From NCBI GenBank assembly GCA_041650835.1, contig JBAZKL010000003.1, positions 35,682-99,681 on the forward strand: 64,000 nt of DNA. Direction: 5' to 3'. Positions 36,225-43,260 of this stretch are shown piece after piece (the first letter of the stretch is position 1; each line of letters begins with the position of its first letter). The notes beneath the pieces are model-generated. The model did not search any database. It was not told where the DNA came from and worked only from the letters and a program-made list of their open reading frames with translations. This stretch comes from Candidatus Omnitrophota bacterium. GTDB lineage: Bacteria; Omnitrophota; Gorgyraeia; Gygaellales; Profunditerraquicolaceae. The position numbers and the translations under genes are program-made.

Positions 36225-36425
36225 AAGCGCCCTTCATCCACCACCGGGATAAAGGACGCCTTAGTCCATGCTTTACCACCCGAACATACAGGATTGTTCG
36301 GTGTACCCTCGCGGGTAAAAAAAAAGTCTTTTTGCGTTCTTTGCAAAAAGACTTCTGCGTCTTAATTCTACTTCTCTGTACTTATTATAAATATACCACA
36401 GATTCGGCTTTTGTCAAGCTTTTCC
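36225..36425 (-). promoter_or_regulatory. promoter-leader module copy 1 (TTGACA-N16-TATATT; hairpin+U9; covarying hairpin; hairpin+U7 ending ~8 nt before nadE ATG)
   Basis: ~75-80% identical to 43050-43260. Confidence 0.55.
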
Positions 36426-36432
36426 CTGATCT

Positions 36433-36684
36433 TTATGGCAGAAAAAGCACCGCTTTATTCTCCGTAACCTCCAGGAAACTTTTTCCCTCGGCATTAAAAA
36501 CAACTGATTTTCCAGAAAGCTCCCGCACAGTTATTCTCCCCGTAATAAGGTTAGCGGCAAAAGGGGCATGATCGGCGAGTATTCCTACATAGCCGGTTTC
36601 AGCCGGTACCACCAAAGATACCACCTCCCCCTCATAAAGGGGCCTCTCCGGGCTCAAGATAGCGACATGGAACGGTTTCTCCAT
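36433..36684 (-). CDS. atpC: ATP synthase epsilon subunit (short, beta-sandwich domain only)
   Basis: 83 aa. Confidence 0.8.
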   Translation of the reverse strand: MEKPFHVAILSPERPLYEGEVVSLVVPAETGYVGILADHAPFAANLITGRITVRELSGKSVVFNAEGKSFLEVTENKAVLFLP

Positions 36685-36697
36685 AGAATTCCTTAAC

Positions 36698-38107
36698 TTA
36701 GGGATGCGCGTCTTTAAGGCGCTCTGCGTTATCCAGGACTTCTGAGATCGTTCCTGTCATATAAAACGCCTGTTCTGGGGTAGTATCCAGCTTGCCTTCA
36801 ATGATCATCCGCGCCCCGCGTATCGTATCCTCCAGCTTCACGTATTTACCTTTTATCCCGGTAAACGCCTCAGCGACAAAAAACGGCTGAGAGAAGAATT
36901 TCTGGACCTTTCGCGCGCGGAAAACGATCAACTTATCTTCATCTGATAATTCATCAATACCGAGAATAGAAATAATATCGCGCAGATCTTTATACCGCTG
37001 CAAAACCTTCTGCACCCCCAGGGCGGTATCATAATGTTCATCGCCGACGATCTTAGGGTCCATAATGCGGGAAGCCGAATCCAAAGGATCAACCGCCGGA
37101 TAGATCCCCAGCTCCGCGATCTGCCGGGAAAGCACTATTTTAGCGTCCAAATGGGAGAATACCGCCGCAGGCGCAGGGTCGGTGAGGTCGTCTGCCGGCA
37201 CGTACACTGCCTGGATAGAGGTGATCGAGCCGTTTCTTGTCGAGGCGATCCGCTCTTCTAATTGCGCGACCTCCGTCGACAAATTAGGCTGGTATCCGAC
37301 CGCCGAAGGCATACGGCCCAACAAAGTCGAAACTTCAGAACCGGCCTGAATATAGCGGTACACATTGTCAATGAATATCAAGACGTCTTTTCTTTCTTCA
37401 TCCCTGAAATATTCGGCGATGGTGAGCGCGGATAATCCGATACGCAGCCGTGACCCCGGCGACTCATTCATCTGCCCGAAAACCAAAGAGCTGTTCTTGG
37501 CGACACCGGAAGCGTTCAATTCAAGCCAGAGCTCATTTCCCTCCCGGGTACGTTCTCCGATCCCCGCGAAAACAGAAACACCCCCGTGCTCTTTGGCGAT
37601 AGTCCGGATAAGCTCCATGACGATCACGGTCTTGCCCACCCCTGCACCACCGAATAAGCCGACTTTGCCGCCCTTGGGTATCGGCGCTAAAAGATCGATG
37701 ACCTTTAAACCGGTTTCCAATATTGACGAAATAGGAAGCTGCTCCTCGAAATTAGGAGAAGGCCGATGTATCGGGTTACGCCTTTCGGGCTCAGGAAGCA
37801 CCCCCTTACCGTCGATAGTCTCTCCCAGCAGGTTGAATATCCTGCCGAGTGTCTGCGGCCCCACGGGTACCGTGATCGGCGAACCGGTATCATGCGCCGT
37901 CATCCCCCGTTCTAAGCCATCGGTAGAGCCTAACGCGATACAGCGGACCGTATTATTGCCGATATCCTGCGCCACTTCCAGCGTCAGATCGATCCCTTTA
38001 CCGGCAGCGACGATCTTGATCGCGTTTAAAAGCTTAGGTACCTGGTTTTCCGGGAACCGCAAATCTACCGTCGGCCCTATCACCTGAATCACGTAACCAT
38101 CTTCCAT
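36698..38107 (-). CDS. atpD: ATP synthase beta subunit
   Basis: GGAGVGKT P-loop. Confidence 0.95.
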
Positions 38108-38110
38108 GGA

Positions 38111-38968
38111 TCATCCTTTCAGCGCTTCCGCGGAGGAAATGATTTCCAGCATATCCTGCGTGATCGTCGCCTGCCTGACTTTATTTCTCGTCAAAACCAG
38201 ATTTTTTAAAAGCTCCCTGGCGTTGTCGGTTGCTGTTTTCATGGCAACCGTCCTTGCCGCATGCTCTGAAGCAAACGCCTCCAGGAGTATGAACCTGCCG
38301 GAGAGCGAGATATACCGGGGAAGCAGCTCCTCAAGGACTCTCACCGCTGCCGGCTCAAAAATATACTCGGATTTAACTCCACCTTCCCCCTGGAGGCCGA
38401 GGAACTTCTTTACTACCGGTTTATGCAATAATGCCGTTTCAAAATGAGCATAGGCGCAATACACTTCTCCAACCTTCCCCGACGAAAAAAGATCGACAAG
38501 ATTTCCCGTGATCTCATCGGATATGTTTTTCGAATACCTGCCGTTGAGGCCGACATAACTCTTGGCTATTGAGACTCCCGGGGCATTCTTGAAATAATTA
38601 AGCCCTTTTCGCCCGACGATAACCAGTTCCACGTTATCTTTCTTTCGCTCATTGATGAACGCCTCCGCGGCGCGTATGATATCATTATTATAAACACCGC
38701 AGAGCCCGCTGTCGGATGTGATCACGCACAAACAGGTTTTCTCTCCAAACGCTTTTTTCTTCAGGTACGGGCTCAGCGGAACCTCTACACTCGCCAGAAG
38801 ATTATTGAGCATTGTTCTTAATTTCAGAAAATACTGCCTCTGGGCAGAAAGTATTTTATTAGTGCTGTTTAACTTAGACACCGAGATCATCTCCAATGCC
38901 CCCGTTACTTTTTTGGCATTTTCAATGCTGCGTATCCTTAGTTTTATCTGTCTGAGAGACTGGATCAT
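38111..38968 (-). CDS. atpG: ATP synthase gamma subunit
   Basis: 285 aa, operon position. Confidence 0.9.
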
Positions 38969-41791: not shown

Positions 41792-41809
41792 ACTTCCTCC
41801 TTTTTTTTC

Positions 41810-42556
41810 TTACTCTTCATGGGTTAAAACAACAGCAAAATAAATCGTGCTTAAAAGGCAAAAAACCACTGCCTGGACAACCGCCGCTAAGAGCGATGAA
41901 AACATATTAAAGAACAACAAGGGAAACCCTTTCATGCCGAAATTCGTCAAAACCGATAACAAAACATCGTCACCCCAGATATTACTGCGCAGACGAAGCG
42001 ATAAACTGAGAGGTTTAATCAACTCTCCCGCCAGATGCAGAAAAAACATTAATAAGGGAATAACGATCGAGAACGCGATGGCGCCGCGCGGTCTTCCTGC
42101 CAGGTGGTCGAGATATCCCCGTACCCCTAACTCTTTAAGCGCGGAATATTGAACGTAAAAGAAAACACACAGCGCCAGCGCCAGGGTCGTTGACCAGCTT
42201 GACGTCGAAGGCTTCAGGAACGGCACCAAACCGGAAAGATTCATAAAAAGTATATAGATAAAGAGCGTCCCGATAAAAGGGGTGTACTTTCTTCCTTTCG
42301 GCCCCAGGATCCCGCAGACAAAATCATCTAAGCCTCCCGCTAAAACCTCAACGGCATTCTGCAGCCTCCCCGGGATCAAAGAATTCTTTCTCGCGCCATA
42401 AAAGGCGATTGCCGAGATCACTGCCATAATAAAGAGCGAATAAACAACGTGTTCCCAGACATACAGATTTTCAAAAAATGGATTACCCTTGAACCTTTCC
42501 GCAAGCAACGCCAACAAATCGGGTAATTCATGCTGTACAACAGCACCTTCTACCAT
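41810..42556 (-). CDS. atpB: ATP synthase subunit a
   Basis: 248 aa polytopic, conserved Arg helix. Confidence 0.85.
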   Translation of the reverse strand: MVEGAVVQHELPDLLALLAERFKGNPFFENLYVWEHVVYSLFIMAVISAIAFYGARKNSLIPGRLQNAVEVLAGGLDDFVCGILGPKGRKYTPFIGTLFIYILFMNLSGLVPFLKPSTSSWSTTLALALCVFFYVQYSALKELGVRGYLDHLAGRPRGAIAFSIVIPLLMFFLHLAGELIKPLSLSLRLRSNIWGDDVLLSVLTNFGMKGFPLLFFNMFSSLLAAVVQAVVFCLLSTIYFAVVLTHEE

Positions 42557-42559
42557 ATT

Positions 42560-42810
42560 AATTTCCCCTGCTATTCTGATTATTTCTATAAATGGGGTAT
42601 GGGTAAAGGTAAGGCGGTTAGTTTAGTAGTTAGGAAAGGTAGTTTGGGTTCAAGATCTAACTACCTTTCCCAACAACCAAACAAATATCCTAACCTTAAC
42701 CATAATCTAACACTATAGGTCATAGACCATCAACCGTGGACTAACGCCTACCTGTTTACCCCGAGCTTGTCGAGGGGTGTCTTGTGTCATGCGACATGTG
42801 CCTACAACCT
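42560..42810. repeat. mosaic repeat region between atpZ-like gene and atpB
   Basis: shares gttagtttagtagttaggaaagg, ccccgagcttgtcgagggg and cttgtgtcatgcgacatgtg modules with 51590-52130. Confidence 0.5.
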
Positions 42811-42813
42811 GCT

Positions 42814-43050
42814 TCAAGGCTTCTTGTCCACCAACAGCACAAATTTAACAAGCCTGATTATTTCTATTAAACTGGCTAAAAAACCCGTGCCGATACAAAT
42901 ATAATACACCCACGCACCTGCGTTAAATTGCTTTACGAAATATTCACCTGCCAGATATCCGGCCACCGGGCCAGAGGCCAACAAGAGCGGGATAAAAGCG
43001 GCAACGCCGGCGATCTTAATTAATTTATAGGGTCCTTCTTTTTCAGCCAT
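42814..43050 (-). CDS. small two-TM membrane protein upstream of atpB (AtpZ/AtpI-like)
   Basis: 78 aa, position as first gene of atp operon. Confidence 0.45.
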   Translation of the reverse strand: MAEKEGPYKLIKIAGVAAFIPLLLASGPVAGYLAGEYFVKQFNAGAWVYYICIGTGFLASLIEIIRLVKFVLLVDKKP

Positions 43051-43260
43051 AAAGAAAAAAGGCGCCCTTCATCCAATCATTGGAGGAAAAAACGCCTTAG
43101 TTTTTGTTTCAACACCCAAACATATCTGATTGTTTGGTGGCCTCGTGGGCAAAAAAAAATCTTTTTGCGAAGCTGCAAAAAGACTTCTATGTCTTACCTG
43201 TCAACTCTGTACAAGACTATTATAATAAACAAGCTGTTTTTGTCAAGCCTTTATTGCTTA
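43050..43260 (-). promoter_or_regulatory. promoter-leader module copy 2 (TTGACA-N16-TATAAT; hairpin+U9; covarying hairpin; hairpin+U6 ~4 nt before ATG) driving atp operon
   Basis: near-consensus sigma70 hexamers. Confidence 0.55.

Follow-up and report, generated by a model that had tools for sequence, protein, structure and literature searches.

A module of about 210 nt, made up of a σ70-type promoter and a leader with two terminators, was found twice on the minus strand of a 64-kb stretch of contig JBAZKL010000003.1 from a Candidatus Omnitrophota bacterium (the whole stretch is called the window below, and all positions refer to it). The two copies, localised at 36214-36425 (copy 1, the nadE copy) and 43051-43260 (copy 2, the atp copy), directly flank the ATP synthase (atp) operon, and copy 2 begins 12 nt past the stop codon of a gene for a GAF-ANTAR protein; neither point was made in the earlier sequence-only reading, in which the repeat had been noticed. 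Our results suggest that each copy is probably a promoter followed by a two-stage, protein-dependent attenuator of the ANTAR type, which the neighbouring GAF-ANTAR protein would control.

The claimed repeat was real, because the alignment of 36200-36440 with 43040-43275 (both on the minus strand) gave a mean column identity of 83%. The diagnostic sub-patterns had exactly two occurrences in the window, as in the case of a 27-nt pattern with two matches against 0.00 expected. Compared with dinucleotide shuffles, the folding of the whole leader had a z of -6.2 for the nadE copy and -3.6 for the atp copy. The near-consensus σ70 promoters proposed before were also found, both of them being the best matches of this type within 33500-44200. 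The parts of each leader are given below, where P1, P2 and P3 are small hairpins with the hexaloop in brackets (A1 and G4 being an A and a G at loop positions 1 and 4), T1 and T2 are the terminators, H1 and H2 are the hairpins of a repeated element, and R1 is a covariance model of P3+T2, which recovered all the module copies at 50-62 bits.

36390-36417, minus strand: promoter of copy 1 (nadE-sigma), TTGACA-N16-TATATT with an upstream TG, 11/12 consensus
36369-36380, minus strand: P1 of copy 1, UAC[AGAGAA]GUA (A1, G4), starting at about +3 from the predicted transcription start
36348-36363, minus strand: P2 of copy 1, AAGAC[GCAGAA]GUCUU (G1, G4), overlapping the 5' arm of T1
36317-36356, minus strand: T1 of copy 1, a perfect 13-14-bp hairpin with U9, -15.8 kcal/mol, present in the terminator scan
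36277-36315, minus strand: hairpin-pair repeat element of copy 1, H1 CCC-GCGA-GGG and H2 CACCGAACA...UGUUCGGGUG
36254-36267, minus strand: P3 of copy 1, GGAC[UAAGGC]GUCC, overlapping the 5' arm of T2
36220-36262, minus strand: T2 of copy 1, a 16-bp hairpin with three G-U pairs and U7, 6 nt before the ATG, -24.7 kcal/mol
43219-43246, minus strand: promoter of copy 2 (atp), TTGACA-N16-TATAAT, 12/12 consensus, the best in 33500-44200
43200-43211, minus strand: P1 of copy 2, degenerate, UAC[AGAGUU]GAC, with the loop retained and the stem lost
43180-43195, minus strand: P2 antiterminator hairpin of copy 2, AAGAC[AUAGAA]GUCUU (A1, G4), whose 3' arm is the 5' arm of T1
43151-43188, minus strand: T1 of copy 2, a 13-bp hairpin with a U-run, -14.1 kcal/mol
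43113-43150, minus strand: hairpin-pair repeat element of copy 2, H1 GCC-CACGA-GGC and H2 CACCAAACA...UGUUUGGGUG
43088-43105, minus strand: P3 antiterminator hairpin of copy 2, AAAAAC[UAAGGC]GUUUUU, whose loop GGC and 3' arm are the 5' arm of T2
43055-43098, minus strand: T2 of copy 2, a hairpin with U6, 4 nt before the ATG, -17.1 kcal/mol; R1 54.5 bits, E = 6e-11

Both terminators had the stable hairpin and U-run of intrinsic ones (T1 with -14 to -20 kcal/mol and U8-U9, T2 with -17 to -29 kcal/mol and U5-U8). T1 and T2 of the nadE copy were among the top-ranked sites of the terminator scan, T2 being its top match (R1 61.6 bits), and the terminators of the atp copy fell outside the scan criteria on this strand. 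The first hairpin had been described as AGAAGUCUUUUUGC-N7-GCAAAAAGACUU plus U9 in each copy; this was true of the nadE copy (36317-36356), but the atp copy (43151-43188) has a 6-nt loop and a 3' arm without the C. The last hairpin ends as proposed in GAAGGGCGC(C), followed by U7 or U6, and its U-run stops 6 nt (nadE) or 4 nt (atp) before the ATG. It had also been argued that G-U pairs restrict several of the stems to the minus-strand transcript. This was sustained for T2, which has three to four G-U pairs and folded at -24.0 kcal/mol in the sense and -12.9 in the antisense direction in the nadE copy (-17.0 vs -13.1 kcal/mol in the atp copy), but not for the other stems, whose folding was about equal on both strands. 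The G-C to A-U compensatory change of the middle hairpin was seen too (36277-36303 vs 43113-43139), and this hairpin is part of a separate repeated hairpin-pair element (H1+H2) that four orthologous leaders do not have. A second P1-like hairpin before P3, GUG[GUAAAG]CAU, was discarded; it was found in the nadE copy of the window only and is not conserved.

No Shine-Dalgarno-like sequence was seen between the T2 U-run and the ATG of nadE (36214-36219) or of the AtpZ-like gene (43051-43054). GGAGG-type sites were found at several other genes of the window and in 3/4 orthologous leaders outside the genus that keep a 20-40-nt spacer after T2, the terminator abutting the start codon being specific to the window's genus.

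In all nine leaders compared, the small hairpins shared strands with the terminators in a mutually exclusive manner, the 3' arm of P2 being used in T1, and the GGC of the P3 loop together with the 3' arm of P3 being used in T2. The terminators had -14 to -29 kcal/mol and the P hairpins 0 to -8 kcal/mol, suggesting that termination is the default and that read-through should need a protein stabilising the small hairpins. Pairing and covariation were counted in these nine leaders, which come from seven lineages, with a slid alignment as the control:

T1: 96.8% of the cells paired, best slid control at most 67%, four pairs changed on both sides
T2: 91.5% of the cells paired, best slid control at most 60%, five pairs changed on both sides
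P3: 100% of the cells paired, best slid control at most 72%, two pairs changed on both sides
P1+P2: 97% of the cells paired, best slid control at most 58%, no pairs changed on both sides

CC has become UU in the strand common to P3 and T2 of the atp copies, a change that T2 absorbs by means of G-U pairs, and the 5' arm of P3 has changed from GG to AA. This compensatory change argues that P3 itself is under selection. The conservation and covariation of both terminators in the orthologous leaders agreed with the proposal of a promoter and transcription-attenuator leader acting in the minus-strand transcript.

The same leader was found directly after the GAF-ANTAR gene in four other Omnitrophota loci (L009, L017, L019 and L022) and after ANTAR-nadE in a fifth (L002). 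The module is single-copy and syntenic in the other Omnitrophota examined, usually upstream of an extracytoplasmic function (ECF)-type sigma gene and, in L022, upstream of amtB. In the window's genus, one copy lies before nadE and the sigma gene and the second before the atp operon, a layout shared by two sister species (L001/L010/L012, L014 and L023, one from a gene table). Locus L020 stops immediately behind the ANTAR gene, and in L021 the surroundings differ and the module is missing. All nine orthologous or paralogous leaders have retained the -35 box, a spacing of 16 nt and a hexamer resembling a -10 box, with TTGACA-N16-TAtAcT in the relatives. The consensus of the orthologous leaders was P1 UAC[AGMGWW]GUA at -1 to +4 and P2 (A/G)AGAC[NNNGNN]GUCUU at +17 to +20 from the predicted transcription start, a T1 whose 5' arm includes GUCUU, P3 GGAC[NNNGGC]GUCC, and a T2 whose 5' arm begins with the GGC of the P3 loop. 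In L002, L009, L014 and L022 the U-run of T1 abuts P3, the next hexaloop hairpin, with nothing in between. From P2 up to the ATG, the three species of the genus share one atp leader sequence, save one U-run base per sister species. The window and L001 were 79% identical in the atpZ and 88% in the ANTAR coding sequence, and their atpZ-atpB spacers could hardly be aligned.

Scanning public genome contigs with the T2 pattern gave one locus, from a sister species recorded as 'Planctomycetales'. In public metagenomes the P2/T1 pattern gave seven loci, three of which were leaders of sister species (L010, L012 and L014); the other four (L011, L013, L015 and L016) were rejected as chance matches, apparently inside coding sequence. 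The genes of L001 (CAZPNW010000135.1) were 79-95% identical in DNA to those of the window, whose proteins bear the name Candidatus Omnitrophota in NCBI; the label of this record, 'uncultured Planctomycetales bacterium', is probably wrong.

The genes next to the two copies are the following:

43258-43998, minus strand: gene of the GAF-ANTAR regulator, 246 aa (Pfam GAF_2 7e-25, ANTAR 1.9e-16)
36433-43050, minus strand: atp operon, with a 78-aa AtpZ-like gene followed by the a, c, b, delta, alpha, gamma, beta and epsilon subunits (from open reading frames and Pfam)
33919-36213, minus strand: genes behind copy 1, glutamine-dependent NAD synthetase (nadE, 34483-36213) and then an ECF-type sigma gene (33919-34482)

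The ANTAR part of the regulator matched the solved ANTAR proteins Rv1626 (1s8n), EutV (6wsh) and NasR (4akk), and its GAF part was closest to the GAF domains of NifA-like proteins and PtsP. The GAF domains of NifA and PtsP are nitrogen-status sensors. Homologues of this protein at 79-86% identity were found in very many Omnitrophota. The nadE product has the Pfam domains CN_hydrolase and NAD_synthase, and its gene is contiguous with the sigma gene at 34482/34483. The 187-aa sigma protein matched TIGR02937 (sigma70-ECF) with E = 6.8e-11 and 42.1 bits, just below the 42.9-bit cut-off. The nitrogen-assimilation cluster of the window covers 8708-36213. In the relatives the gene order is AsnC-type regulator, aminotransferase, GAF-ANTAR, (glutamine-dependent nadE), a 172-175-aa gene, porin-like gene, amtB, glnK, amtB, glnK, type III glnA, HTH_8 gene and gltB, the product of the 172-175-aa gene being a homologue of the window's ECF-type sigma protein.

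An ANTAR substrate, as defined in the literature, has two hairpins of at least 3 bp with A1/G4 hexaloops, the second of which (P2) overlaps the terminator (PMC3369931). The P1 loops had A1 and G4 in 9/9 leaders; G4 was present in every P2 and P3 loop (27/27 loops overall), and A1 in six of the nine P2 loops. Tandem hexaloop hairpins of at least 3 bp (P1 and P2) were seen in seven of the nine leaders, and P2 had 3-5 bp in all of them. Structural work has since reduced the minimal binding unit to one hexaloop, with which an ANTAR dimer makes contact (PMC8934654), and this makes a lone P3 plausible. In Geobacter, the ANTAR protein GnfR antiterminates the leaders of nifH, glnK and amtB through a conserved CAGGCAANGGCGCC (PMC2995071). 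No GAF-ANTAR protein had been characterised at the time of the 2012 ANTAR paper (PMC3369931), and our literature search gave no later report of one, and nothing on ANTAR, for Omnitrophota.

Considering these data together, the module would work as follows. By default, transcripts would begin about 7 nt past the -10 box and terminate at T1 (about +65), and those reading through would terminate at T2, before the start codon. We infer that the GAF-ANTAR protein, activated through its GAF domain by a signal that is probably a nitrogen-status metabolite, would bind the P1 and P2 hexaloops on the nascent RNA, so that the GUCUU strand is kept in P2 and T1 is blocked. Binding of the same protein to the P3 hexaloop would then hold GGCGUCC and block T2, and the RNA polymerase would continue into the downstream genes; the response would be read-through. 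The ancestral use was probably to gate the ECF-type sigma factor of the nitrogen cluster, and in this genus the module would gate nadE with the sigma gene and, through the second copy, the relocated atp operon.

Several observations weigh against this model. The proposed regulation by the GAF-ANTAR protein rests on adjacency and motif fit. A1 was found in 0/9 P3 loops (U in 7/9, also C and G), and three of the nine P2 loops have G1. P1 is stemless in the window's atp copy and has only 2 bp in L019 (the atp leaders of the two sister species retain it as UAC[AAAGAA]GUG). Depending on how the stems are drawn, the P1-P2 linker has 2-5 nt, vs 5-12 nt in the eut leaders of E. faecalis, where cutting the eutP linker to 3 nt impaired induction (PMC3369931). 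P1 and P2 showed no two-sided covariation in the nine leaders, because their sequences are conserved. Any single overlap of a hexaloop and a terminator arose by chance in 0.3-13% of the shuffled flanks, and the lineages are not independent, so what carries weight is that it recurs at both terminators, throughout the lineages and in further leaders. Finally, it is physiologically odd to have an ATP synthase operon behind two strong terminators, and its expression may depend on basal read-through or on an internal promoter.

It is unlikely, considering the linkage in seven lineages, that the attenuator depends on a different RNA-binding regulator encoded elsewhere in the genome. The lack of the canonical A1 in P3 and the short P1-P2 linker would suit such a factor, and of the contig, which has at least 435 kb, our inspection covered 64 kb. 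However, leader and GAF-ANTAR gene are in tight linkage, the G4 of all the loops and the A1/G4 of every P1 fit an ANTAR protein, and the nitrogen cluster of the window encodes no other ANTAR or known RNA-binding regulator.

The RNA of about 65 nt from the promoter to T1 could also be a small RNA, such as a decoy titrating the ANTAR protein like EutX/Rli55, besides or instead of its role in cis. A strong promoter, ANTAR-type hexaloops and a strong terminator are indeed gathered in about 65 nt, and this part has been duplicated nearly unchanged; but a second attenuator and a gene lie downstream in every case, similarly oriented, and no stand-alone P1-P2-T1 unit was seen, which makes us regard this role as quite improbable.

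Even less probable is that the whole module is a promoter cassette resembling a miniature inverted-repeat transposable element (MITE), as the sequence-only reading had offered, or a recombination scar, in which T1 would simply end the upstream operon and T2 would be incidental. The copies form direct repeats on either side of the atp operon, which a Campbell-type insertion would produce; T1 was the only terminator seen in the short stretches separating each module from the genes upstream of it, and the middle part belongs to a repeat family. Nevertheless, other Omnitrophota have one copy of the module in synteny with the GAF-ANTAR gene, and it is duplicated in one genus only; there are two copies in the window, and the public scans gave true copies only at the orthologous sites of sister species. 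Moreover, a promoter before two conserved, covarying terminators is sensible only if termination is conditional, and P3 shows a compensatory change.

A metabolite-binding riboswitch with T1 and T2 as expression platforms, also suggested before, appears the least tenable of these possibilities and very improbable indeed. The layout of terminators before a gene, the strong structure (z = -6.2) and the extreme conservation of the atp leader would be compatible with it. However, Rfam gave no match at the gathering score over the whole window, and the permissive search of both copies gave only chance matches driven by the terminators (PyrR, Phe_leader and microRNAs, all with E >= 0.3). In the four orthologous leaders without H1+H2 (L002, L009, L014 and L022) there is nothing between the T1 U-run and P3, which leaves no room for an aptamer; the conserved parts other than the terminators are hexaloop hairpins of 12-18 nt, too small for one and far weaker than the terminators. 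Leader-peptide attenuation was rejected, since no conserved small open reading frame was seen by eye and the Phe_leader match stems from the terminator.

Having weighed these alternatives, we return to the ANTAR-type attenuator and to how the atp operon came to lie behind it. The atp operon has been relocated in this genus. The relative with locus L017 has an ANTAR-sigma locus without the insertion, and its atp operon is elsewhere, after exbB-exbD (L024, which we took as the same species as L017). The first gene of the L024 operon is a homologue of 77 aa (43% identity), preceded by a σ70-like promoter, and close homologues (at least 82% identity) of the 78-aa first atp gene were found in this genus only. 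No convincing module precedes the L024 operon; a T2-like sequence there had only R1 11.7 bits (E = 0.26) and no place in the minimum-free-energy fold, and was not accepted as a homologue. The simplest reading of the sequences is a move of the atp operon to the ANTAR locus, made in the ancestor of the genus, in which the operon received a leader copy or was integrated through one; this would give the direct repeats at its two ends. In addition, the T1 of a copy would terminate the operon upstream of that copy.

Similar designs were found before other nitrogen genes of the window. These class B and related leaders, and the sites of a recurrent upstream motif, are:

33600-33918, minus strand: class B leader of the porin-like and amtB-glnK genes, with a GTTACC-N18-CTTGTA motif, hexaloop hairpins and two terminators
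13577-13731, minus strand: HTH_8-gltB leader of like design, GGCAC[AUUGUU]GUGCC and GAAC[AUUGAC]GUUC before a terminator; weak R1 match at 13577-13635, E = 0.84
16128-16230, minus strand: attenuator before a gene with a glutamate-synthase domain, TTGACA-N16-TAAGAT and GGAC[AAUGGC]GUCC overlapping the terminator; R1 match at 16128-16172
21410-21608, minus strand: leader of glnA (type III glutamine synthetase), GUGCAC[AUAGCA]GUGCAC and GAAC[AGGGGC]GUUC, then a terminator; R1 match at 21420-21476
13702-13731, 21540-21569, 28826-28855 and 33885-33914, minus strand: GTTACC-N18-CTTGTA sites before the gltB, glnA, amtB-glnK and porin-like genes, respectively

In the porin-amtB-glnK leader, R1 matched at 33673-33728 (45.7 bits, E = 1e-8) and at 33788-33825. 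Another Omnitrophota lineage (L018, 8414-8671) has a class B leader with two hexaloop-terminator units before nifH and a P-II gene, suggesting that the candidate ANTAR regulon may extend to nitrogen fixation. Most class B leaders begin at GTTACC-N18-CTTGTA, and the 16128-16230 leader begins at a σ70-type promoter. The motif, as GTTACC-N18-(TTA)CTTGTA, occurred four times in the window against 0.02 expected, always in the sense orientation and upstream of nitrogen genes. It was also found many times in the related loci L002, L009, L014, L017, L018, L019 and L022, including at nifH.

This motif may be the promoter of the ECF-type sigma factor encoded at 33919-34482. If so, a feed-forward cascade can tentatively be drawn, and we hold it to be rather doubtful as a whole: the GAF-ANTAR protein would free the attenuator of the ECF sigma gene, the sigma factor would fire the GTTACC-N18-CTTGTA promoters of amtB, glnK, glnA, gltB and nifH, each one of these would be gated again by an ANTAR-type unit, and the atp operon would have moved into the circuit in one genus.

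The H1+H2 element between T1 and P3 has to be considered apart from the rest of the module. H1 is a small hairpin with a GNRA-like loop (e.g. GC-AGAAA-GC), and H2 is built as ACACC-stem-A/U-rich loop-stem-GGGUG with a bulged G. The stems covary or vary between copies while the flanks ACACC...GGGUG are fixed, no Rfam family corresponds to the pair, and the alignment with MAFFT and RNAalifold recovered only part of its structure. It is absent from the orthologous leaders L002, L009, L014 (the nadE leader of a sister species) and L022, present three times, once nested, in L019 (about 6800-6940), and present as a variant in L017. Scanning with a regular expression gave eight copies in the window, with more nested at 60-345, and three were antisense to the flanking genes. 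Besides those of the module, the copies are:

60-345, plus strand: several nested copies (z = -8.0)
16728-16776, plus strand: H1+H2 copy
60008-60051, plus strand: H1+H2 copy
28549-28711, minus strand: tandem array of 44-nt units
33740-33786, minus strand: H1+H2 copy

L009 has two antisense copies on the minus strand (6263-6289 and 15839-15865). The element was thus found in both orientations with respect to genes, as tandem arrays and nested within the loops of further copies, and several copies lie just after the first terminator of nitrogen-gene leaders. Dispersal in both orientations with presence or absence at orthologous sites, as in a mobile repeat, was seen for H1+H2 only and not for the whole module. 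From these patterns, H1+H2 behaves like a mobile repeat of the repetitive extragenic palindromic (REP) type that tends to sit just after T1, and it may matter in the atp leader, where it is conserved across three species. It resembles REP sequences and bacterial interspersed mosaic elements in being a short imperfect palindrome with conserved flanks, which is intergenic, lies in either orientation and forms clusters and tandem arrays; it differs in that the stems vary widely while the flanks stay, and in that copies are nested in the loops of other copies.

Other features of the window were also observed. An amtB-glnK pair has recently been duplicated in tandem at 26762-29982 (78-96% identity over about 2.1 kb; repeat families D2, D3, D5 and D7), giving three amtB-glnK pairs. 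The ATP synthase epsilon subunit (36433-36684) is very short, with 83 aa when counted from the first ATG (98 aa in the gene call of a sister species); only its N-terminal beta-sandwich domain was detected, and the C-terminal helical part seems to be absent. Short GT/AC-rich repeats (GTGTCTTGTGTCATG..., AGACACATGACACAAG...) lie in the intergenic spacers at 22835-22889, 27186-27218, 42777-42809, 47448-47480 and 51752-51820, one of them inside the 257-nt spacer, itself poorly conserved, that separates the AtpZ-like gene from atpB. A tandem array at 52131-52379 has 5.3 copies of a 47-nt unit with 89% matches, the family reaching 52084-52426 in the repeat search. An AT-rich dispersed repeat of about 95-160 nt has four copies (7057-7199, 17601-17763, 51871-52036 and 58545-58694; families D4, D6 and D8), one of which adjoins this array.

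The attenuator proposed here gives a concrete, testable model of nitrogen regulation for the uncultivated phylum Omnitrophota and a candidate set of targets for GAF-ANTAR proteins. It would place two ANTAR-type units in series, the second with a single hexaloop, in agreement with the revised single-hexaloop binding model. The module is also an example of regulatory rewiring, in which a promoter-attenuator cassette was duplicated and a relocated core bioenergetic operon would have come under a nutrient-responsive switch. If the cascade were true, the expression of the ATP synthase would depend on nitrogen status, and the cascade itself would be previously undescribed. The RNA elements are not in Rfam and can be used for annotating these genomes.

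Compared with the EutV-eutP/G/S/A (Enterococcus faecalis), NasR-nasF and AmiR-amiE systems, the leaders described here are alike in having small hexaloop hairpins, mostly of at least 3 bp, with A1/G4 in every P1 and G4 throughout, and a downstream hairpin sharing a strand with the terminator (PMC3369931, PMC8934654), as well as in the ANTAR regulator encoded nearby and in termination as the predicted default state. They differ in that the sensor is a GAF domain, whereas those systems have a receiver, a NIT domain or the partner AmiC, and in having two terminators in series, the second guarded by one hairpin with a UAAGGC loop without A1. The P1-P2 linker of 2-5 nt is another difference, the binding of the ANTAR protein is suggested here by motif fit, and the gated genes are an ECF sigma gene and, in this genus, the ATP synthase operon. 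The GnfK/GnfR system of Geobacter sulfurreducens is alike in another respect, because its CAGGCAANGGCGCC may be interpreted as GGC[AANGGC]GCC in overlap with the terminator, which is the NNNGGC-loop design of P3 and of the class B P2, and because the ANTAR layer, here as there, would be a second layer above a master transcriptional activator (PMC2995071). In contrast, GnfR acts as the response regulator of a histidine kinase under RpoN/GnfM, whereas a one-component GAF-ANTAR protein is found here, in the phylum Omnitrophota, and the upper layer is apparently an ECF-type sigma factor that is itself behind an attenuator. Seen beside these systems, the module would be a known mechanism in a variant form, to which the rewiring of the ATP synthase operon is an unusual addition.

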